A DNA stretch of 64,000 bases, from contig CM126209.1 of assembly GCA_052327205.1 (NCBI GenBank), forward strand, positions 33,790,001-33,854,000. The letters run 5' to 3'. Position 1 is the stretch's first letter. Every line of letters starts with the position of its first letter. Positions 4,129 through 27,734 of this stretch are shown one piece after another. A program made the position numbers and the translations under genes. The notes below the pieces were generated by a model, which saw only the letters and a program-made list of their open reading frames with translations, did not search any database and was not told where the DNA came from. Source of the stretch: Somniosus microcephalus (lineage: Eukaryota).

Positions 4129-4655
4129 AGGCCACAGCTGGAATACTGTGTGCAGTTCTGGTCGCCACACTATAGGAGGGATGTGGTTGCATTAGAGAGG
4201 GTGCAGAGGAGATTCACCAGGATATTACTTGGGCTGGAGCGTTTCAGCTATGAAGAGAGACTGGACAGGCTGGGGTTGTTTTCCTTAGAGCAGAGAAGGC
4301 TGAGGGGGGACCTGATTGAGGTGTACAAAATTATGAGGGGCATAGATAGGGTAGATAGAAAGGGATTTTTCCCCTTAGTAGAGGAGTCAATAACCAGGGG
4401 GCATAGTTTCAAGGTAAGGGGCAGAAGGTTTAGAGGGGATTTGAGGAAAAACTTTTTCACCCAGAGGGTGGTTGGAGTCTGGAACTCACTGCCTGAAAGG
4501 GTGGTAGAGGCAGGAACCCTCACAACATTCAAGAAGCATTTAGATGAGCACTTGAAACACCATAGCATACAAGGCTATGGACCAAGTGCTGGAAAATGGG
4601 ATTAGAATAGATAGAGCTTGATGGCCAGCACAGATACGATGGGCCGAAGGGCCTC
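4129..4655 (+). mobile_element. CR1 LINE 3' end (ORF2 C-terminus and 3' UTR). The tail resumes at 5239-5263.
   Basis: Translation RPQLEYCVQFWSPHYRRDVVALERVQRRFTR...RRLRGDLIEVYKIM...FFTQRVVGVWNSLP is typical CR1. The UTR GGGCCGAAGGGCCTC continues as TTTCTGTGCTGTATAACTC after the insertion. Confidence 0.93.
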
Positions 4656-14694: not shown

Positions 14695-14874
14695 TGTTGT
14701 GTATGTACCTTTAAGGGAAGAACTGATTCTATACTGCAGTACCGGCAGTGACCACCCCTGTATATAAAGCCATAGCAGGCTTCTGTATTTCAGTCTTGAG
14801 TTCCCCTCTGTTCAGTAAATACCTGTTTTATTGTTCTCCTGCAGTCCGAGTATTATTGATACCCGGACACTACA
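14695..14874 (+). repeat. Element 1 5' LTR
   Basis: TG...CA. Three mismatches in 180 bp against the 3' LTR by eye. TATATAAA inside. Confidence 0.96.
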
Positions 14875-14875
14875 C

Positions 14876-14898
14876 TGGCGACGGGCAGGTTCGAACTC
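14876..14898 (+). promoter_or_regulatory. Primer binding site, tRNA-Ser-like
   Basis: TGGCGACGGGCAGGTTCGAAC begins 1 nt after the LTR. TGGCGACG is complementary to the 3' end of tRNA-Ser(GCT). Confidence 0.75.
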
Positions 14899-15411
14899 AC
14901 CTGCAGTACTGCATCACCTCACGGGGATCTTTTCCCTGAAGAGAAGCTTCTTGGAGGTCGAAGTCAGAACGGCGGGCGTCGACCGCGGGCAACCGCCCAG
15001 GGATCCATCGGAGAGTTGCAGGGGAGGCTGTGGAGAGCTGGGCCTGGCTCCCCAGTCGAGGTGTTCCAGCAAGTCGTGCTGGTAGCAGGTAGTGCGCTGA
15101 CCCTTCCGGACTGCGGCGGGCTCGGGCTCGATCGAGCGGCTCTGCAAAGGGGCCGTGCAGCGTCGTCGGGAGGAAGAGAGAGAGGGTGGAGCGCACAGGG
15201 CGTGGTCGGTGCTCAAGAACCAGGCAGCGTGGAGAGGATAGAACGAGGGGAAGAAAAAGTGATACGCGCCGAAGCCGCGGGCCACCATTACCCTGTAGAA
15301 CGCTAAGAGCAGCGTGGCAGTAAGGAGAAGAAGCAAAAGCGCGGGAGGCGCTATTTTATTCCATTGGGGAAGAAGAAAATGCGCGGGAGGCGCCATTTTA
15401 AATCACTCAAG

Positions 15412-18400
15412 ATGCCGAAGAGTGGTAGTATCACTGCTTTCGACAACGAGGTAGAAGACTGGACCACATATGTGGAAAGAATTGAAGTGTACTGCGAGGC
15501 AAATGAGGTGGCCGATGGAAAGGCGGCGTCGGTATTATTAAATTTGATGGGCGCGAGAACGTACGGCTTATTGCGGAATTTAATTACCCCAGCTAAACCA
15601 ATGGAGAAAAGTTTTGAAGAGATTGTTAATACCTTACAGGAACACCTAAACCCTACACCGTTGCTGATAGCAGAAAGATTCAAGTTGCATAAAAGAAACC
15701 AGCACAAAGATGAGAGCAATGCTGACCATCTTACGGAACTACGCAAGTTATCGAAGCACTGCCAGTTCGGAGCAGGACTGGCAGACACCTTACGGGATAA
15801 GTTTGTCTGCGGGCTCCAGAGTGAAGGAACCCAGAAACGACTACTTTCGGAAAAGGACCTGACGCTAGAACAGGCTTTCAGCATGGCAGTATCCTACGAA
15901 GCAGCAGCACGGGGAGCTGCGGAAATACAACAGAAACCACAAGAATACAGCGCTAACGAAATGGCGTATGGAGCAGAAAAGTGCTATCGCTGCGGCAGAA
16001 CAACCCATGATCAGAAGGACTGCTGGTTTAAGGACAAAGTATGCAGGCAATGTGGGCAAATGGGACACATAGCAAGAGTCTGCAGGTCGGGAAAGAAAAC
16101 CAACACTACAAGAACTACTAAGGAAAAGTACAAGAAAGTAAAGAAATTGACAGACAGTAGTTCGGAAGATCAGGAGAGTGATAAGGACTCCGGGAGCAGG
16201 AGACTAAGTTGTCTAAAGTTACACAACGTGATCGCAAAGGAGGATCACCGAACCATTTGGGTCACCCTCAAGATAGCAGGGTCCCCAGTAAAGATGGAAT
16301 TGGACACAGGATCAACCCTAACTGTCATGAATCGATGAGACTATGAGCGGCTATTCCCACACATACCCTTGAAGGACACGTCCATTGTATTGAAGACATA
16401 CACGGGGCAAAAGGTCTACCCCAGAGGAAAAATAAGGGTGCCAGTTGAATACAACAGCAAGGAAACACAGAAACTGTATCTATATATACTACCAGATGGA
16501 GGACCACCATTATTGGGACGTGAATGGATCCGAAAAATACAATTGGATTGGCATTCCATTCAGGCGCTAACTGTGACTGATAAAAAGGATGATGACGTCA
16601 CACCTGGACGACTGTCAAAGATTCTAACTGACGCGAAAGAGGTGTTCCAACAAGGACTTGGGACTCTAAAAGGAGTAACGGCAACGATAAAAATCGAAGA
16701 TAACGCAAACCCAAAATTTCTTTAAGGCCAGACCAGTACCTTACGCGATCCGCCCAGCCGTTGAAGCAGAGCTGGAGAGTCTGGAGCGTTCGGGTGTGCT
16801 GTCCAAGGTGGACTGGAGCGAGTGGGCCACACCCATCATTCCTGTAATGAAGAAATCATTGAGCAGCACGCCTGGGGAACCGAAGAAGGTTCGCATCTGT
16901 GGGGACTTCAAGGTAACTGTGAACCCAGTCCTGCACACAGTACAATATCCACTTCCACGGATAGAAGATATTTTCGCCTCACTATCTGGAGGGAAACGCT
17001 TTACAAAGATTGATCTGTCCCAAGCGTATCTACAAATGGAGGTGGAAGAAGCATCTAGGAAATACCTCACGATAAACACTCACAAAGGCCTTTACCAGTA
17101 CAATCGACTGGTATTCGGGGTAGCATCAGCCCCGGCTATTTGGCAGAGGGCGATGGAACAAGTCCTGCAAGGGATCTCGGGGACCCAGTGTTATTTGGAC
17201 GACATCCTGGTTACGGGCGAAAATGACAGTGAACACCTTGCCAACCTGGAGCAGGTGCTCACGAGATTACAGGAATATGGGCTACGAGCCAACCGCCCCA
17301 AATGTGAGTTCTTCAGGAGACAAATCTCGTATTGTGGCCACATGATTGATGAGGAAGGGTTGCATAATTCGCCGGACAAGATTGAGGCTGTAGTCAAGGC
17401 TCCAGCACCGGAAAATGTGTCGCAACTGAGGTCGTTCCTCGGGTTAGTGAACTACTACCATAAGTTCTTGCCGAATTTATCTACAATTCTGCACCCACTG
17501 AACGCCCTCCCTGCTGCAAACTGGAGTAACATGGAAATGGAGTGATGAGTGTAAGCGTGCCTTTCAGAATGTAAATGCCTAATCACTTCAAAAGAAGTAT
17601 TGGCCCACTACAATCCAACACTACCGATTCGGTTAGCATGTGATGCGTCTCCCTATGGCATCGGAGCGGTGCTGTCACACAAATTCCTTGACGGTTCAGA
17701 GAGGCCAATAGCCTTTGCGTCGCGCTCGTTAACCTCAGCCGAGCGTAACTATGCCCAGATTGACAGGGAGGCCCTCAGCCTGGTGTGGGGGGTGAAGAAG
17801 TTCAATCACTATCTGCACGGGCAGAAATTCACCCTACTGACTGATCATCAGCCCCTGGTCTCCATTTTTAACCAAAAGAAGGGCGTTCCGGTGATGATGG
17901 CGCAACGGCTGCAAAGATGGTCACTTTTTCTAGGGGCACATCAGTACGACATAGAGTACAAGGGTACGAAACAGCATGGAAACGCTGATGGGCTGTCGCG
18001 CCTACCATTGCCTATGGTAGAGGAAGCACCTGCAGTGGACCCTGTTGAGATATTCCATGCGACCATAGTCGAATGTCTACCTGTTACAGACTCAAGTATA
18101 GAGAAGGAAACCCGAAATGACCCGACACTCTCTCGGGTCTATGATTTGACGGTGAAGGGATGGCCAGCACATGGCGACTCACTGTTGCCAGCATTCTCGC
18201 CAAGGAGAGAACAGCTGTCAGTGTGCCGGGGAACCTTGATGTGTGGATCCCGAGTGGTAAATGCACCAAAGTTGAGAGATAGAGTGCTCAATGAGCTTCA
18301 TGAGGGTCATCTGGGAGGGGTAAAAATGAAGAGCCTAGCCAGGGCGTTTGTGTGGTGGCCGGGAATCGATAAAGAAATCGAGGATATGACCAAGAGATGC

Positions 18401-19371
18401 ACAGGATGCCAGAAGGTCCAAAACGCTCCACCACAGGCCCCGCTACATCCATGGGAGTGGCCCTCATCTCCATGGCAATGGGTACACATTGATTTTGCTG
18501 GTCCATTTATGGACTCAATGTTCCTAATCGCTGTGGACGCCCATTCGAAATGGCCAGAGGTCATCAAAATGTCCTCCACCCCACCACCACGGAGAAAACT
18601 ATTGCAGTCCTACGGACCATCTTCGCCAGGAATGGCTTGCCAGAACAGATTTGCTCCGACAATGGGCCACAGTTTGTGTCAGAGGATTTCCGGAGGTTTC
18701 TGAGGAATAATGGGGTGAAGCATTACACATCTGCCCCATATCATCCAGCCACAAATGGATTGGCTGAGAGGTTTGTTCAGACCTTTAAAAAGGCCATAAA
18801 GGCAATGCACAATGACGACATACCACAACACAAGGTGGATAATTTCTTGTTTGCTTACCGGAATGCGACACATGCAGTCACCAACCAAGCTCCAGCCATA
18901 ATGTTCTTCAACCGAAGGCTAAGATGTCGCCTGGATTTGCTCAAACCAAACATAAGACGAGATGTTGAGGATAAGCAATTCCAGCACATAAATGAGAAGC
19001 CAACCAGGAGCTTCAAGATAGGGCAACCAGTCTTGGCCCGCGACTACCGAACAGAAAAATGGCAGCCAGGAACGATATGCACACAGCAGGGACCACTAAT
19101 GTACACAGTGGACGTTGGCGGGAGCATCATGAGACGCCGTGCTGACCAGATTCTAGAGTCACAGGAACAAGCCAAACCCATACCACGAGCAGGTGCACCT
19201 GGTAATCAACCCGAAGTACAGATTGCGTCTACCTCAGAAGCAATGGTATTGGAAGCTGACAAACCAACCAATGACAATGAGCCAGAATCAACTCCACCGC
19301 AAGAACAGGATACTCGAGAAAGGCGCTATCCAGTCAGGATCAGGAAGCCTCCTCAAAGACTGAACTTATAA
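15412..19371 (+). pseudogene. Element 1 gag-pol polyprotein, disrupted
   Basis: Two CCHC knuckles, protease LDTGS, RT YLDD, RNaseH CDASPYG, integrase HHCC plus HIDFAG/SDNGPQF/GLAERF, ending PPQRLNL*. Stop at 16336-16338 and frameshifts near 16720, 17508, 17575 and 18580. Confidence 0.95.
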
Positions 19372-19467
19372 ATGATTATTTCAGTTGATGTATATAGTAC
19401 AGAGAAAATTGTAATTGTAATTAGTTATTATTTAAGTTGTTAAATGAATGTTATGTACTGTTTATCT

Positions 19468-19480
19468 AAAAGGGGAGGAA
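19468..19480 (+). promoter_or_regulatory. Polypurine tract, element 1
   Basis: AAAAGGGGAGGAA just before the 3' LTR. Confidence 0.9.
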
Positions 19481-19481
19481 T

Positions 19482-19661
19482 TGTTATGTATGTACCTTTA
19501 AGAGAAGTACTGATTCTATACTGCAGTACCGGCAGTGACCACCCCTGTATATAAAGCCATAGCAGGCTTCTGTATTTCAGTCTTGAGTTCCCCTCTGTTC
19601 AGTAAATACCTGTTTTATTGTTCTCCTGCAGTCCGAGTATTATTGATACCCGGACACTACA
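19482..19661 (+). repeat. Element 1 3' LTR
   Basis: Direct repeat of 14695-14874, followed by TSD ATCAT. Confidence 0.96.
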
Positions 19662-21110: not shown

Positions 21111-22175
21111 TGACTTGATTAATTGCACAGATTTCATCTTGATTTCCATTGTCCTGGTTATTTCCAAACTTTTACATAAAGTCCTAAGGGTCCAAAGGTT
21201 CGATCAAGAGTTCAAAGAGAATGTGAAAGGTCTGCAAACTCCTCTTCAGTTCACTCTATCAATCCTATACGATACAAGAACTGGCAAGAGGCACAAATCT
21301 ATCCGGCTAGACAGAGGGTATTTCAGCTGGTGAAGCAAAGCACATAGTAACTTACTGAAGAACAGATCAGATATTGTGCAAAACTAGTTGGGCAAAGCAG
21401 TCCATTAGTGAGTCTTATCTAAAATGAACAAATATGAATGGCTTATCCTCGCTGTCTCCAATTACAGTCTCCCGGTCATTTATTTAAATCCAGAAAGCTT
21501 TACTGTAGCTCAAATAGTACCTCAAACATCCAGCTGTCCACTTCTCAATAACACCATGTGCAGCAAAGGCGGTGTCAATCGGTCAGTCTCCATTAGCTGA
21601 AACCTTCTCCGTGTGGCCTCATATTAGAGAAAAAAATAACAATGCACTGGATAAGGTTGAATAATATTACAATAAATTACCTCAGAAATGCCATTAGTTG
21701 TAAAACCCTAATAGTCCTTTTAAAATTAAAATAATTTACCTGAGAAAGGACCACATAACAGCCATCATTGAGCTGGTTTTATGTTCAATGGAGGTTCGCT
21801 ATGCAACTGGGAGATGTAACTTGGTTTGGTAAGAAAAAGGTTCAAAAAATCAATGTTGCTTAACTGGGACAATATCTTTATTTCTGCCAGAAAAACAGAA
21901 AACGCTGAATATGCAGTATCAAAAATAAAATAAAAGTTTTGGATGTAATCCTTCACCGAAACTGGGATTTCTTTCAGATGCTAATCATGCTATTACACAC
22001 TTCCACGATTTTCTCTCTTTATTTCAGATTTCAACATTCACAGTTTATATTTCTGTACCTCACGGGCTTTTAAGAGTATGGTGGGAATTTTAACTCCCCA
22101 CCTGGGGTGGAAACCAAGTCGGCGGGTTTGGCTGTCATTTATGCAAATTAGGGTCCTATTATATCATGAGGACCC

Positions 22176-22431
22176 TGTAGTGTATGTAACCATTCTACCT
22201 TTAAGAGAACTATTGTATGTAACTGTCCACCTTTAAGAGAACTATTTTAGGTGTTGCACTACTTTATCTTGGCTGCTGTATACTGTAATACCGGGAGTGA
22301 CCACACCGGTATATAAGTGCTGTGTAAGGATTTATTGGGCAGATTCGCCCTGACCTTCGAATAGTAAAGTCCTGTTAAAGTTACTCTTGTAGTCTGTGTA
22401 TTGATTCACCATATAACCCACAGACTTTACA
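22176..22431 (+). repeat. Element 2 5' LTR
   Basis: TG...CA. Three mismatches in 256 bp against the 3' LTR. Internal ~33-bp tandem duplication at its start. Confidence 0.96.
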
Positions 22432-22432
22432 G

Positions 22433-22448
22433 TGGCGACGGGTTCGAT
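22433..22448 (+). promoter_or_regulatory. Primer binding site, tRNA-Ser-like
   Basis: TGGCGACGGGTTCGA. First 10 nt are identical to the element 1 PBS. Confidence 0.75.
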
Positions 22449-22799
22449 CTTACCCTGCGGCAGCGACACACCCGAAGCAGTTAACGAGCGTCGAGAAGAG
22501 GCACCCGCCCTCGTCGTTCGGCTGAGAGAAGACTCGAGTCTGCAGAGCAAGGAAGAAGGAAGGATTCAGACACGAAGCCTTCCATCAGCAACAGGCTGTT
22601 ATTGTCCCTTCTGCCACGGCGGTGAGTGAGCCGATCAGCCAAGAGAAGCAAGTCGGCCACGTTGACTGTGAGTAGGGGGAAAATAAAAAGAAACGGAGGA
22701 TAAGGGCGGTGAACTCGACCACGGTCGGGGGAAAGGAGCCGGACAGAAGTCGGGCCCAGAGGCGCTGAGACTGGGGCAGCGTAGGGCACGGAAGCCACG

Positions 22800-22882
22800 G
22801 TACAAGCGGGAACGCAGCCGGTGTGAGAGACCGGGCTACAAGCGGGAACGCAGCCGGGGTGAGAGATCGGGCTACAAGCGGG
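22800..22882 (+). repeat. 36-bp tandem repeat (about 2.3 copies) in the element 2 leader
   Basis: TACAAGCGGGAACGCAGCCGG(T/G)GTGAGAGA(C/T)CGGGC repeated. Confidence 0.85.
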
Positions 22883-23473
22883 CTGGGAGACGCAACAGCG
22901 TCGTGAGACAGCTAGACCGCGACCGGCGAAAAAGGCCGGGCAGCTACTGAGGCCACGAAGCGCTGCGACCGGGATCGTAAGGCGCGGGAAGATATAAAAA
23001 TAAATAAAACCGCGGAGAACTCAGCCGCAGCCGGGGGAGGAAAGGACCGGACTGCGAGAGGGCTGGGAGGCGCGATTGGAAGCCGCTGAGGGAGAGACAG
23101 AGCCCAAGTGAAGGGGGAACGGGACTGAGCGAGGGAGACCGAGCGAGATTCCGCCCAGCGGCTGGAACTGTTCGCCGCCAACGGGTTGTCCCCAGCGCCG
23201 GTTGCCGGCCGAGAAAAGGGAACAAGGAACGCACTGAAGCCGGCGCGCAGGCTGCGAACTCCGAAAGCCAGCGGTCGTCGCCCGAAGGAAAGCTTACCCC
23301 TCCCGCCAGGGGAAGAAACGTGGGAAGCCGCCAGTAGGCGGGGAAGAAGACAGAAGCGGGAAACCGCCATTTTGAAAGTGGGCGGGGAAGAAGACAAGCG
23401 CGGGAAACCGCCATTTTTGGAAAAAAAAAGGTAACGAACAAATTCGTTGCGGTTTCTCAAAAAGATAGTGAAG

Positions 23474-26074
23474 ATGCCTAAGCATGGTAACATCAACAAC
23501 TTCGATTCCGAGGTGGAAGATTGGGCCACGTACGTAGAACGCATCGAGATATATTGTGAGGCCAGTAAAATAGCAGATGATAAAGCTCTCACCTTATTAA
23601 ACGCAATGGGGGCGAAGACATACGGGCTATTGAAGCATCTTCTATCACCAGCTAAACCGGCGGATCAGACTTTCGCTGATATTGTTGCTGTCCTGAAGGA
23701 TCATTTGAACCCCACACCGCTGATGTTGGCGGAACGATTCAAATTTTATGCGAGAACGCAACGGAAAGAGGAAAGCAACGCGGAATACTTGGTCGAACTG
23801 CGTAGACTAGCGAAATACTGCCAGTTTGGGGAAAAGCTGACAGAGGCATTGAGAGACAAGTTCGTGTGTGGGTTGTCGAAGGAAGGAACACAAAAGCGAC
23901 TGCTCGAAGAGAACGATCTTACACTTGACAAGGCTGTCCTTATTGCAGCATCACACGAAGCAGCCGCGAGAGGCACTGCGGAAATGCAGCTGAAGGCAGC
24001 GGTACTCAGCGTGGATCAAATGACTTCGGGTACAACAAAATGTTATCGTTGTGGGAAGACAACACACGACCAGAACCAATGCTGGTTTAAAAACCAGGAA
24101 TGTAGAAAATGTGGCAAGCTTGGTCACATAGCTAAAGTATGCTGGTCAGGAAAGAAGACCAACAACAGAAAAAAGTCACCGCAGGAAAAGTACAGCAAGG
24201 TACACAAGGTGGCTGAGAAGAGTTCAGGTGAACAGAATTCGGATTCAGACCCGAACGGCCAGGAACTGGGTAGTCTGAGAATTCACAATGTGAGTAAGGA
24301 AGCTGACCTACAAACTATCTGGGTCACACTAAAAGTAGCCGGAGTCCAAGTGAAAATGGAATTGGACACAGGATCAGCCCTATCAGTCATAAATCGAAGG
24401 GATTACAACCGGCTATTCTCACATATACCCTTGAGAGATACCAAGATCGTATTGCAGACATACACGGGGCATAAAGTATACCCCATGGGAAAGATACAAG
24501 TCAAGGTGAGAGACAGGGGCAAAGAACACCAAGGAATGGACTTATATGTACTACCTGAGGGAGGTCTACCACTTCTGGGACGGGAGTGGATCAGGGAAAT
24601 AAACATGGAATGGCACTACCTAAAAGCAATAACGAGTGAGAACTCGGTGAAGACAATCAGCTCAGACTCTGAAACGGATGACGACAAGACCAGCCCAGGT
24701 GCGAAAGATAAGTCTAAAATGGACTTGCTGACTAAGATTGGAAAAACGAAGGAGTGCATAAATACTGATGCTTCAAAGGAGAACAAAGTTTCAGAACAGA
24801 ATTCCACTGAACAACAACATAGTTTGGCAGAGAATTCTGAGTCTGTCCAGTTTACAGACATGCACAAGTCTGAGGAACACCGGGCTCGAACTCAACTCCA
24901 TTTCAAATTACAACAGCAATTAGAACAATTGAGTTGCCGTCTCGAGCAAGAGATAAAAGCAATGAAAACGTTCTTTGACACAGAGTGGGAGAATCTGGAA
25001 AGACAACAGAAACAGCTGAGGGAGAAAAGGGAGCAGGAGCACACAAACCGTCTGCGCAAGGAGGCCAAACGAATCAAAGCTGATTCGGTTTCTGAAGGTG
25101 CGTGCTCTAATCTGGTGGAGCAAGAGGTTCAGCAACTGAAGGTGCTTGTTAGCAGATTGCAGGCAGAAAAGGCTGAGTTGGTCGCCATGAATTCCGAGCT
25201 CCTACTGAAGTTGGGTGCAGCATCACCGGACGATTCATTTGTGGAAATTCGAATGGTGGAGGCTGCGGATGATGGCGAAGTAGAAACAGCAAAGGAGCCC
25301 CAGGGGGAGGTTATAAACAGCCCTGCAGCTACTGGGAAACGGATGAGGTCAGAAGAGTCAATGGTCAGCCAACTCCTTCATATGCTGAGGGACAAGACTC
25401 TGAAATGGGAACAATTTGGACATGAGTCTAAATCTTCAAAGGAGAGGGATTTGGAGCTCCCAAAAGTTATTGGAATAGCTGAGGTTGCAACACAGACTGA
25501 GAAGATGGCAGCAGAGCAAACCTTGGATGCCAAAAGTACGCTGATTCACGTCAATGTTGAACAACAGAATGCTGAAACAGCTGCTCCAGTAGAGGGATTG
25601 AATAATACAATCAATCAATCTCCCAATGAAGTTGAAGTATTGAAATCACGAATGAGGTCATTAGTAAAAGACTTGCAGGAAGCCCAGAAAAAGCTGGATG
25701 AAACTGAACGCATGAAGAAGTCTCTTCAGGAAAGATGTCTGGATTTGGAACAAAAGCTGGCTAACGTCCAGCTGGGTATGGAGGAAATAGAAGACCCTCT
25801 CGCTGGCTTAGCTCAGGACGACACCGAATATTACCATGACCTGTTGGACGACACCGAATATTACGATGACCTGCTCTGCCCAGCTTGTGATGAAAACTCC
25901 CAAAGTGCAGAAACCATGAAGAATCACCTAAAGTCTAAGGAACATCGGGAGATGGTGGCGCTACTACGGAAAAAGGAGGACGAGAAGGAGGAACGGTGCA
26001 TGCAGCTGGCAGCTGACAGTGGAGCCCAGAGAGTCTCCAAGAAGCAGAAAAGGAAAAGACGAAGCAGAAGATGA
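23474..26074 (+). CDS. Chimeric Gag-protease fused to STK10/SLK-like, optineurin-like and DNAJC21-like segments
   Basis: Uninterrupted frame. ATG 23474 aligns with element 1 MPK start. [33 protein letters not shown], then EEHR...[14 protein letters not shown]...[25 protein letters not shown]...DSFVEIRM...VSQLL...LQEA...MKKSLQE, and [10 protein letters not shown]...[17 protein letters not shown]. Confidence 0.9.
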
Positions 26075-26284
26075 TGACCATCTGAACCATTATCACCTCT
26101 ACCAGGTCACGCATGTGGTCTCTCCGTACGGAGCCAAACCAGTTTGGAAGTAGAAAAACTTCCCAAGGTACTCAAGCTTTTAAAAGTCAACAATGCTGGT
26201 TCAGAAGTGACGGAAGTTCAAGCTGTTAAGTCCAGTGAAGGACTATTGGATGAGTCACTCCAGCAACGTGAACCGACTACACCG

Positions 26285-26393
26285 AGACTGAATCTGTGAA
26301 CTGTTTTCCGCAGAGACTGAATCTGTGAACTGTTTCCCGCAGAGACTGAATCTGTGAACTGTTTCCGCAGAGACTACATCTGTGAACTGTTTT
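26285..26393 (+). repeat. Four copies of a 28-29-bp repeat containing the pol terminal codons
   Basis: AGACTGAATCTGTGAACTGTTTTCCGCAG. Across units it reads CCG CAG AGA CTG AAT CTG TGA (PQRLNL*). Confidence 0.9.
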
Positions 26394-26447
26394 TACATGA
26401 AGTTGGATATATGTTATGTTTAATGGGGAATAAGTAGGTTGTAAGCT

Positions 26448-26459
26448 AAAAAGGGAGGA
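26448..26459 (+). promoter_or_regulatory. Polypurine tract, element 2
   Basis: AAAAAGGGAGGA directly before the 3' LTR. Confidence 0.9.
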
Positions 26460-26460
26460 T

Positions 26461-26716
26461 TGTAGTGTATGTAACCGTTCTACCTTTAAGAGAACTATTG
26501 TATGTAACCGTCCACCTTTAAGAGAACTATTTTAGGTGTTGCACTACTTTATCTTGGCTGCTGTATACTGTAATACCGGGAGTGACCACACCGGTATATA
26601 AGTGCTGTGTAAGGATTTATTGGGCAGATTCGCCCTGACCTTCGAATAGTAAAGTCCTGTTAAAGTTACTCTTGTAGTCTGTGTATTAATTCACCATATA
26701 ACCCACAGACTTTACA
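26461..26716 (+). repeat. Element 2 3' LTR
   Basis: Direct repeat of 22176-22431, followed by GACCC. Confidence 0.96.
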
Positions 26717-27734
26717 GACCCCGATGCCCGGACTCGCTCCCTTCGCACGCAAACTGCCCCATCCCTGCAGTTACCTTAGGACCAGAGACCACCCAACTAT
26801 CCGCCACTCCCACCAAGGTCCCAGCCATGCAAGTCAGAAAGTCGGCCAGCAGCATGTTAACAAGGCTCAACTTTTAAAATTAGCCGCTCCTGGATGGTCT
26901 AGCCGTTCGCTAGCCCGCCTTCCCATCCAGGAGTTAAAATTCCCACCTGCATGTCTTTACAAAATATTCTGATGTTATGATCAGGCATAGCATTGCACAA
27001 TCTAAGAGCCAATCATTTTATGCAATCACTCACATTCTTATATGGCACAATCTATAAAAGTGTTTTTCAGCCTTTTCAAACTGAGAATTCACAATGTAAT
27101 GTTGGATAGGTTTTTATCCTCGGTAGGGACGTTCTGTGAAGCATTAGATGGAAGTTCAGTGCAGATTTAGTATGTGATTCTACATGGGAACTGATGCAGC
27201 CTGTCACATATGGAATGATGGCCTCTGATGATACTTGAACCCACAACCAATGAGGTGTGAGACAAATACTTCGCCACAGTGGCACCAGATTGCCTATTAA
27301 AGCAAGATTTTTTTTGTTTTAGGAAATAAGCTGTGGCATTATATTACTCTAAACTGTGGTTTTCAATAAAGGACAACATATTTATATCTAATATACTGCC
27401 ATAAATTCTGTTTATAATTAACATTCACATAGCAAAGACAATATGGTTTTGATTTATCCGGAGCAGATTATTTTACTCTGGCACTCTAATGAATACTTAT
27501 TGTTGGTCTGCTTCTGGTGGCCGTATGTGCCACATAATCAAACTCCCTGCAATGATTTTAACTGTCAGGATTACTAGCTTGCATTCATTTATCACGGGTT
27601 GTCTTTTTCAGGTTAGAAAATCATTTGTAGCCTCTTCATAGTTTCCGCATGTTGCAATTAAATCTTCCGAATTGCTAATAGATCTATTAGTGCACAAAGA
27701 GTCATCAGGTCTCTGTGCCCAGTGAAAAGCAAGA

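Follow-up and report, generated by a model that had tools for sequence, protein, structure and literature searches.

An LTR retrotransposon lineage in Somniosus microcephalus that carries in-frame host gene pieces and was probably founded on an STK10 exon circle

Acutely transforming retroviruses depend on helpers and have pol replaced by host coding sequence that continues the Gag frame (gag-onc). LTR-mediated retroposition has been described in metazoans by Tan et al. 2016 (PMC5131818), an article that also presents maize Bs1, an LTR element with three host gene pieces found at 1-5 copies per genome. A separate line of work describes circRNA-derived pseudogenes, for example the 33 circRFWD2 copies in mouse, with LTR enrichment in their flanks and a mechanism called mysterious (Dong et al. 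2016, PMC4897178), and the route of circRNAs into genomes was left open when these pseudogenes were described. A sleeper-shark preprint (10.1101/2024.09.09.611499) reports LTR expansion and intronless single-exon OPTN copies lying at most 1 kb from LTRs or LINEs.

The element considered here occupies positions 22176..26716 of the window, by which we mean the whole 64,000-nucleotide stretch of Somniosus microcephalus DNA that was analysed, and all its features lie on the + strand. It is one copy of a non-autonomous Ty3/Gypsy-type LTR retrotransposon, a class assignment made independently of an RT tree. Sequence comparison of the element ends identified a GACCC TSD on the left (22171..22175) and right (26717..26721) of two 256-bp LTRs (22176..22431 and 26461..26716) that have TG...CA ends and 3 mismatches between them. 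The 5' LTR is followed by a putative primer-binding-site-like sequence (TGGCGACG, 22433..22442) and by a long, GC-rich leader that contains tandem duplications of 36 and 44 nt (22443..23473), while a polypurine tract (26448..26459) precedes the 3' LTR. The same PBS-like motif stands after the LTR of a neighbouring element, at 14876. A single stop-to-stop frame of 879 codons (23435-26074; 866 from the ATG at 23474) encodes a Gag with two CCHC knuckles under purifying selection (23474..24274, dN/dS 0.20-0.29) and, in the same frame, an aspartyl protease with an LDTGS motif (24275..24633). Pfam detects zinc knuckle and aspartyl protease, then PKK, then zf-C2H2_jaz in this frame, and no RT, RNase H or integrase core. 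The RT-RH-IN order is recovered by Pfam from a related full element at 14695-19661, and an env-sized frame is found neither there nor in the chimeric element. A first-pass annotation had described this cis architecture, a single frame of about 870 aa and Gag-protease followed by no RT, RNase H or integrase, and was right on all three.

Beyond the protease, where sister families retain a short pol linker that is deleted in the window copy, the frame runs into host sequence. The 3' part of STK10 linker exon 'B' (24634..24875, 88.6% to the host locus at G000:C8:167.197 Mb) is joined to spliced parts of exons 'D' and 'E' (24872..25083), where the PKK coiled coil begins (Pfam match at aa 492-551, E 6e-12). 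The first-pass annotation had assigned 24866-25081 to STK10/SLK; STK10 is present, and the parent is not SLK by tree (support 100/99). STK10 also supplies 24634-24871 and 26057-26254, both previously unassigned. In the nucleotide comparison with candidate parents, STK10 at C8:167.19 Mb matched the element, and neither the SLK locus (C8:2.2 Mb) nor an intronless copy resembling SLK on C3 did. OPTN aa 131-384 follows as six host exons end to end with five introns lost (25075..25788, its start previously set at 25110); the translated segment, aa 548-785, matches sawshark optineurin 131-384 at 69% identity (E 1e-95) and contains a coiled coil that aligns with optineurin chains in the PDB, together with an FVEI motif, which we take to be an LIR. 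A junction with a few exon 'A' codons leads back into STK10 (25778..25795), within which exon a DNAJC21 piece is inserted (25796..26056); an insert-free sister form has the direct 25795-26057 joint, without DNAJC21. This piece comprises an acidic stretch with a 30-nt duplication, a C2H2 finger (zf-C2H2_jaz at aa 815-838 by Pfam) and a basic cluster. The rest of exon A and the 5' part of exon B (26057..26254, 90-95% to host) are noncoding in the window copy, after the stop at 26072-26074, and coding in sister families, and they are followed by an integrase C-terminal tail remnant with its RLNL-stop end and 29-nt tandem repeats derived from the tail (26255..26393).

The DNAJC21 assignment agrees with the first reading: in a search with the last 110 aa, in which 86 of 193 candidates passed, every named match was DNAJC21 or a hypothetical protein with the DNAJC21 Pfam set (best E 4e-10). 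The 5' exons of host DNAJC21 were placed at C1:2.65-2.68 Mb. Whole-protein OPTN and DNAJC21 genome searches were dominated by element copies and the wanted host exons did not appear; their first-pass candidates, 16,597-42,440, are not copy numbers. A sister family holds a further capture, a KMT2A piece. The 3' tail of a sister gave no match by phmmer against 1.84 billion representatives and did match STK10 proteins by BLAST. The pieces are, as had been proposed, intronless and in sense orientation, the five OPTN introns being gone and exons D and E of STK10 joined in the window copy; in a sister family STK10 has lost four introns and bears a back-splice. Microhomology marks the junctions, with 12 nt at pol/STK10, 9 nt at STK10/OPTN, 8 nt where OPTN meets STK10 exon A, and 4 nt at the internal deletion that forms the exon B/exon D joint. 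STK10 pieces flank OPTN on either side, their order permuted, and 26057..26254 terminates at the same host position at which the ancestor of the 24634 piece began.

The chimera is not a one-off. Its STK10/OPTN junction has 2,430 genome matches (control, 0), and 12 of 14 assessable copies have their own 5-bp TSD (17 were fetched; in three the 5' LTR lies beyond the fetched stretch). The LTR-pair figure is 0.75% with two aberrant pairs among the 14 omitted and 1.5% with both. The same linker continues as pol in 2,584 exact matches (control, 0) that constitute a pol-bearing helper family; the one helper copy that was read proceeds from linker to RT with YLDD and on to an integrase containing a foreign insertion, and has 12 nt in common with STK10 at the junction. 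These findings accord with the earlier proposal that the chimera was mobilised in trans as a unit, the lineage presumably supplying its own Gag and protease and borrowing RT and integrase from the pol-bearing family. Expression of the frame, which the first-pass annotation had raised, is seen as sense-biased RNA across its whole length in run X16 and with weak strand bias in run X17, in both from reads not assigned to the window copy; the rows shown for these runs include no junction-spanning reads. A contig from an independent run (X1 record 7) bridges the OPTN/DNAJC21 junction, and element sequence is present in sequencing runs of three organism labels.

To evaluate selection we preferred a host-anchored test, as pairwise sister dN/dS is noisy and the sisters were chosen by OPTN similarity and long frames. 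For Gag-protease, shared changes gave dN/dS 0.27 (p 4e-10), and changes private to individual copies gave 0.68 (Fisher p 0.003). Shared changes in the cargo comprise 30 synonymous, 60 non-synonymous and 0 stops, and copy-private changes 28, 49 and 5, respectively. The shared synonymous fraction, 30/90, compares with a neutral expectation of 29-30% (p 0.4-0.6), whereas the probability of no stop among the 90 is 0.004-0.023. Every architecture change in eight sisters, picked for long frames, keeps the frame, and a basic tail in three different sequence forms ends all eight as well as two circle-bearing elements, L069 and L070. Selection keeps the cargo frame open, its domains are not clearly selected, and the captured residues, which evolve near neutrally, appear to be mostly filler. 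The selection for a translated fusion that the first-pass annotation proposed, with dN/dS as its check, is seen in the open frame and not in the captured amino acids. Most likely the frame is kept open for RNA stability or for the basic C-terminal tail. In some sister pairs dS is 0.31-0.42 in the protease versus 0.05-0.10 in Gag, and the Gag-protease constraint may be partly inherited from helpers through recombination.

An unlikely but substantive alternative is that the captured domains, either the OPTN coiled coil with its LIR-type motif or the PKK coil with the basic tail, are functional and drove amplification of the OPTN-bearing subfamilies, by steering the particle or by decoying host autophagy and interferon signalling. 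Shared changes in the first OPTN exon, which encodes the coiled coil and FVEI, number 6 synonymous to 2 non-synonymous against 11:32 in the rest of OPTN, but this exon is one of nine segments examined, the signal is weak after correction, and L058 and L059 have about four replacements in common within it. FVEI is conserved in 10 of 10 aligned rows, the dN/dS interval of some cargo pairs does not include 1 (kappa 1), and the recurrence of the basic tail in three forms is in line with function; the whole-cargo synonymous share nevertheless equals the neutral expectation, and the circle-only family discussed below amplified without OPTN. A wider form of the argument, which we find similarly doubtful, holds that the lineage serially tested STK10, OPTN, DNAJC21 and KMT2A on Gag-protease, with the OPTN coiled-coil/LIR segment and basic tail functional and the particle evading or exploiting autophagy and entering the nucleus. 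If true, a non-infectious element would be pirating host genes in the manner of a virus, with measurable expansion of a vertebrate genome.

That the open frame is merely a by-product of youth, with zero selection on cargo, appears improbable. Individual copies do decay, frames of at least 867 aa occurring in 88 of the best 150 OPTN matches (in 5 of these 88 the match includes a flagged stop) and of at least 877 aa in 16 of 30 loci, and the text of Tan et al. (PMC5131818) partly credits youth for in-frame young retrocopies. The window family has nonetheless diverged by ~9-10% from host STK10 while acquiring none of the expected shared stops, and its sisters kept frame through each rearrangement, though they were picked for long frames.

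The origin of the cargo is best read from a sister family without OPTN, which carries exactly one turn of an STK10 exon circle, 1,245 nt or 415 codons. In the simplest member its five exons replace RT-RNase H-integrase and stand in the order B3'-C-D-E|A-B5', sharing one reading frame with the preceding Gag-protease and with the integrase tail that follows; exon lengths total 1,245 nt with exon D corrected by one base. In a genome search, all 40 scored matches of full-length exon A, and likewise all 40 of full-length exon E, were at 99-100%. Exon E abuts exon A at 13 places common to both match lists, and in all 13 places read the E donor end passes to the A acceptor start, base-exact over 20 nt in 12. 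Full elements L069 and L070 have the entire circle order at 93-99% to the host exons. In a tree of the STK10 part, circle-only elements group with the host gene (97/92) and the window family with two DNAJC21-bearing sisters (96/94). The window copy has OPTN in place of the back-splice junction. With 415 stop-free codons in the circle, and with both partners reading L-D-E through the match at the pol/STK10 junction, the frame would have survived, and the in-frame circle length explains several frame-keeping junctions without selection.

We infer from this arrangement that the founding capture was a back-spliced STK10 exon circle. The serial mRNA transduction by template switching put forward in the first-pass annotation is consistent with the microhomology at the switch points, but the founding template would have been circular and not linear mRNA. 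An E-to-A junction made from linear RNA, whether by transcription of tandemly duplicated exons, by trans-splicing or by two separate captures of STK10 mRNA, merits little credence. Non-colinear junctions do have other possible origins, as Dong et al. (PMC4897178) caution, and RNA reads from a host circRNA are here indistinguishable from element transcripts with the same junction. The junction is, however, exactly at donor and acceptor, the 30 kb read at the host locus (including 13.7 kb upstream of exon A) contain no duplicate of exons A-E, only circle-resident exons are present with no sequence from outside the circle, and the capture begins and, after one period, ends at a single host position, an outcome not expected of a linear template. 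For the 3' exit junction, tails preceded by sequence other than STK10 were sought, and none of the 10 matches was an insert-free precursor or gave a helper-side match.

That the element is a domesticated host gene, or a product of misassembly, is scarcely credible: two extra bases in A-runs of the host OPTN locus mean that small assembly errors are possible, but thousands of scattered copies with distinct TSDs, presence under three organism labels and the independent-run contig refute a chimera, and the copy number, intact LTRs and copy-private stops are at odds with the single fixed locus and decayed LTRs of a domesticated Gag-derived gene.

A circRNA-founded, serially capturing, helper-dependent lineage with selection on Gag-protease and on the open frame is thus the best explanation, to which we assign a probability of about 0.7. 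An STK10 circRNA would have been co-packaged with element RNA, and reverse transcriptase would have switched onto the circle, copied one round and switched back at the 11-12-nt match in the protease-RT linker. Nested architectures suggest that the back-splice junction then gave way to a deletion within STK10 and a spliced segment of OPTN, and that OPTN was later trimmed before DNAJC21 was inserted. In the window subfamily the frame now terminates in the DNAJC21 basic cluster, with element-level selection presumably acting on Gag-protease and on translation continuing to near the 3' end.

With substrate, switch point, candidate helper and product all kept, the lineage would offer a clear record of circRNA copying and a testable signature, namely one exact turn with entry and exit at the same position. 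Its thousands of copies and nested intermediates form a natural experiment on open-frame versus protein-content selection in mobile elements. In shark comparative genomics, element copies can pass for host duplications of OPTN, STK10, DNAJC21 and KMT2A, and they will distort expression estimates for these genes. The preprint (10.1101/2024.09.09.611499) treats OPTN copies as host retrogene duplications; its main text does not mention STK10, DNAJC21 or Gypsy and is silent on any Gag fusion, on copy number and on circRNA. We found no published description of the element family in the literature searched, which covers subscription journals thinly; multi-gene LTR chimeras as a class had already been published (Bs1; Tan et al. 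2016).

Like gag-onc retroviruses, the lineage is helper-dependent and bears in-frame host sequence on Gag instead of pol; unlike them, it is Gypsy-type without env, its fragments lack catalytic or ubiquitin-binding domains, and there is no evidence here of selection on cargo sequence. With maize Bs1 it shares a chimeric frame from three host genes and re-mobilisation as a unit, whereas Bs1 is a plant element at 1-5 copies for which the account in PMC5131818 states no circRNA origin. The cases in the text of Tan et al. 2016 likewise show spliced, sense, partial host sequences from several parental genes within an LTR element, with microsimilarity where the template switched and with secondary retroposition as a non-autonomous element, and the intron loss and switch-point microsimilarity by which those authors recognise retrocopies are both seen here. 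Those cases occupy one or few insertion sites, in contrast to the thousands of copies, nested later captures, probable circRNA founder and intact, constrained Gag-protease of the present lineage, and the word 'circular' is absent from the main text of PMC5131818. The resemblance to the circRNA pseudogenes of Dong et al. lies in a reversed exon-exon junction at splice sites, circle-resident exons only and an LTR context; among their marks of high confidence, the splice-site junction is found in the sister family, together with freedom from outside sequence and, over 30 kb of the parent, from duplication. What sets the present lineage apart from those pseudogenes is the visibility of both switch points, one exact turn, a helper-side 12-nt match, an in-frame Gag-protease fusion and far greater amplification. 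LTR-mediated retroposition, circRNA pseudogenes and maize Bs1 were known already; new is what appears to be in-frame capture of a circRNA, amplified into a serially capturing family of several thousand copies.

The element at 22176-26716 is bounded by 256-bp LTRs (22176-22431 and 26461-26716) with three differences and by a GACCC target-site duplication at both ends, with a PBS-like motif directly after the 5' LTR, a purine tract just before the 3' LTR, and one open frame of 866 codons that begins with the ATG at 23474 and is closed by a stop codon at 26072-26074. In this frame Pfam recognised zinc-knuckle and aspartyl protease domains, then PKK (E 6e-12) and finally a finger of the C2H2 type, with no match to RT, RNase H or integrase. 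The middle of the frame is optineurin, whose nearest matches are the proteins of sawshark and sevengill shark (69% for aa 131-384); this points to a shark genome, probably a squalomorph one. The last 110 aa of the frame match DNAJC21. The structure, the ~870-aa frame lacking pol functions after Gag-protease, and the OPTN and DNAJC21 pieces described in the first-pass annotation were thereby borne out. Elsewhere in the window, a 38-nt minisatellite (1127-2301, ~31 copies) has long stop-free frames on both strands.

Comparison with host loci showed that 25075-25788 comprises six exons of OPTN, located on contig C17, placed end to end at 81-95% identity with five introns lost; host DNAJC21 was assigned to contig C1 from its 5' exons. 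The kinase piece, initially read as STK10/SLK, has its parent at C8:167.19 Mb, which groups with STK10 (support 100/99, tree of 15 rows), and the SLK-like locus at C8:2.2 Mb was ruled out. Against the host locus, 24634-24875 corresponds to the 3' part of the long linker exon B and 24872-25083 to exons D and E, while a third piece at 26057-26254, after OPTN and DNAJC21, is exon A plus the 5' portion of exon B. The pieces are thus permuted, and in sister elements the host position at which the downstream piece stops is the one at which the upstream piece starts, with a 14-nt overlap. Several features of the host loci were noted in passing: two A-runs in the exons of host OPTN (L037:3785-3795 and 4355-4365) are each longer by a single A, with substitutions close by at which the element has the sawshark OPTN state, so that either the assembly is wrong there or the allele is damaged; a Gypsy element of a related family (L068:6120-10000) lies in the intron of STK10 that precedes exon A; the intron following the exon C donor seems to begin GC, not GT (L067:1484); and an intronless SLK-like retrocopy of ~215 C-terminal codons (L064, C3:354658406-354658945) is unrelated to the element.

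A template made by back-splicing exons A-E into a circle predicts that some elements retain the E-to-A junction, and we tested this prediction. Searches with whole exon A (1,200 candidates) and whole exon E (1,370 candidates) each gave 40 of 40 scored matches at 99-100%, one match in each being the host gene, and E adjoins A at 13 places common to both scored lists. At all 13, which were selected for this adjacency before reading, E is complete up to its GT donor and passes directly into A, which begins with the base that follows its AG acceptor; the junction is mismatch-free over 20 nt at 12. Two such elements without OPTN, L069 and L070, were read fully and have the order LTR, Gag, protease, short pol linker, B3'-C-D-E-A-B5', integrase tail (RLNL end), LTR, with STK10 exons at 93-99% identity to the host; both are inserted inside other retroelements. 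Exons A-E total 1,245 nt, or 415 codons, and no second copy of them lies in the 30 kb of the host STK10 locus read. By the criterion of Dong et al. (PMC4897178), this circle-only family is a high-confidence circRNA retrocopy. From the shared junctions and the nesting of the window copy with DNAJC21-bearing sisters (support 96/94), we infer that the window copy descended from it.

A pattern search for the pol linker not leading into STK10 gave 2,584 exact matches (control 0), and nearly all of the first 100 listed run on in the pol frame. One copy of this candidate helper family, read in two stretches, shares 53 of 54 nt with a circle-only element up to the junction, where 12 nt are identical to STK10, and continues into RT (YLDD) and later an integrase interrupted by an insertion. 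Shared sequence at other switch points amounts to 9 nt (STK10/OPTN), 8 nt (OPTN/STK10) and 4 nt (internal deletion). When the tail was sought next to upstream sequence other than STK10, 10 matches came up; none was an insert-free precursor and they did not reveal a large helper family, which counts against a tidy model of how the polymerase entered the circle on the 3' side. Based on general LTR-element biology and the model in PMC5131818, STK10 circRNA would have been co-packaged and reached by template switching, and would have been copied for one round, until the template was exhausted or the same short match was met again, with helper RT and integrase acting in trans and Gag-protease in cis. 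The window also holds a related full-length Gypsy-type element (14695-19661; 180-bp LTRs with three mismatches, TSD ATCAT) whose Gag, protease, RT, RNase H and integrase are broken by stops and frameshifts; its protease is 73% identical to that of the studied element and its RT about 75% to that of the helper, which makes it a cousin rather than the helper.

Eight sisters, taken from the best OPTN matches and biased to long frames, belong to the same LTR family (85-93%) with open frames of 928-1,135 codons: four extend in OPTN to ~aa 428, two are cut at 384, and two also carry DNAJC21. Identity to host STK10 runs from 98.6% in the circle-only elements through 96-98% to 90.5% in the window family. 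The window family's frame ends in DNAJC21's own basic cluster, whereas the sisters' frames close with the integrase tail in an arginine-rich form. The sister L061 contains a further in-frame insert (2342-2812), a KMT2A piece of ~114 aa that is 67% identical to the vertebrate protein (E 1e-40), includes a QVDGADD motif of the taspase-site type and is preceded by ~43 aa with a CxxC...HxxxC-like pattern. The form without the DNAJC21 insert, joining 25795 to 26057, was seen in RNA and DNA runs too. A 41-aa in-frame insert lies in the 3' tail of L058 and L059 within the last 90 codons. The otherwise close sisters L056, L057 and L061 have a mixture of two types of protease (dS 0.3-0.4), which points to recombination with other lineages. 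L057 and L061 are flanked by satellite arrays.

Counting copies with different target-site duplications, as had been proposed, revealed a large family. A cargo search of the genome gave 40 of 40 scored matches at 99-100%, full length, on many contigs, and a 34-nt STK10/OPTN junction pattern (up to 2 mismatches) matched 2,430 times (control 0), a count that includes sister subfamilies and omits diverged copies. Among 17 copies fetched with 5' ends, 12 of the 14 assessable have their own 5-bp duplication; LTR pairs differ at 23 of 3,072 sites over 12 well-aligned pairs (1.5% including two aberrant pairs). About half of copies retain the long frame (16/30; 88/150, 5 of the 88 stop-flagged). Element sequence is present in public runs of three organism labels, and two raw RNA runs (organism B; 5,944 and 5,554 reads) cover all 30 bins at at least 95% identity. 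Orientation over the frame is strongly skewed to that expected for sense in X16 (e.g. 643 vs 25 at 25738-25874) and weakly so in X17. These reads show transcription of the family; they are not assignable to the window copy and have no bearing on translation. RNA reads at 25116-25348 and 25963-26006 include in-frame deletion forms with 231-nt and 39-nt skips, the latter also found in DNA contigs.

Selection was assessed from changes common to at least 90% of the 30 copies nearest to the window copy, relative to host exons (cargo) or L069 (Gag-protease). Gag-protease has 60 synonymous and 51 non-synonymous shared changes (dN/dS 0.27 at kappa 2.2, p 4e-10), a pattern different from copy-private changes (Fisher p 0.003); recombination may refresh this region. 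The cargo (380 codons) has 30 synonymous and 60 non-synonymous shared changes (dN/dS 0.52-0.78 depending on kappa), no different from its 28 synonymous, 49 non-synonymous and 5 stop private changes (p 0.75). Because this synonymous share is at the neutral level of 29-30% derived from observed mutation spectra (p 0.4-0.6) but no stop occurs in 90 changes (probability 0.004-0.023), the frame of this STK10 and OPTN cargo is maintained while its residues are largely free. The selection for a translated fusion put forward in the first-pass annotation thus holds for the open frame and not for the cargo residues. Our leading guesses, the least certain part of this account, are that an open frame spares the transcript the decay to which a long 3' untranslated stretch would expose it, and that it retains a basic C-terminal tail. 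The bolder explanation, that function of the captured cargo keeps the frame open, we consider unlikely. The first OPTN exon, one of nine segments, has 6 synonymous and 2 non-synonymous shared changes, a hint of more than open-frame selection there, against which stand several replacements that two sisters have in common in that exon.

In the literature searched, in which coverage of subscription journals was poor, we found no in-frame circRNA capture in a Gag-protease frame at thousands of copies. A shark preprint (10.1101/2024.09.09.611499) describes single-exon OPTN copies close to LTRs or LINEs, and its main text does not mention STK10, DNAJC21 or Gypsy. Dong et al. reported circRNA pseudogenes with LTR-rich flanks and termed the mechanism mysterious, and LTR-mediated multi-gene chimeras are already known from Tan et al. 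(PMC5131818), where maize Bs1 is cited at 1-5 copies, whereas the lineage of the window element numbers thousands. This lineage unites the two known kinds, LTR-mediated chimeras and circRNA pseudogenes, with rare clarity.
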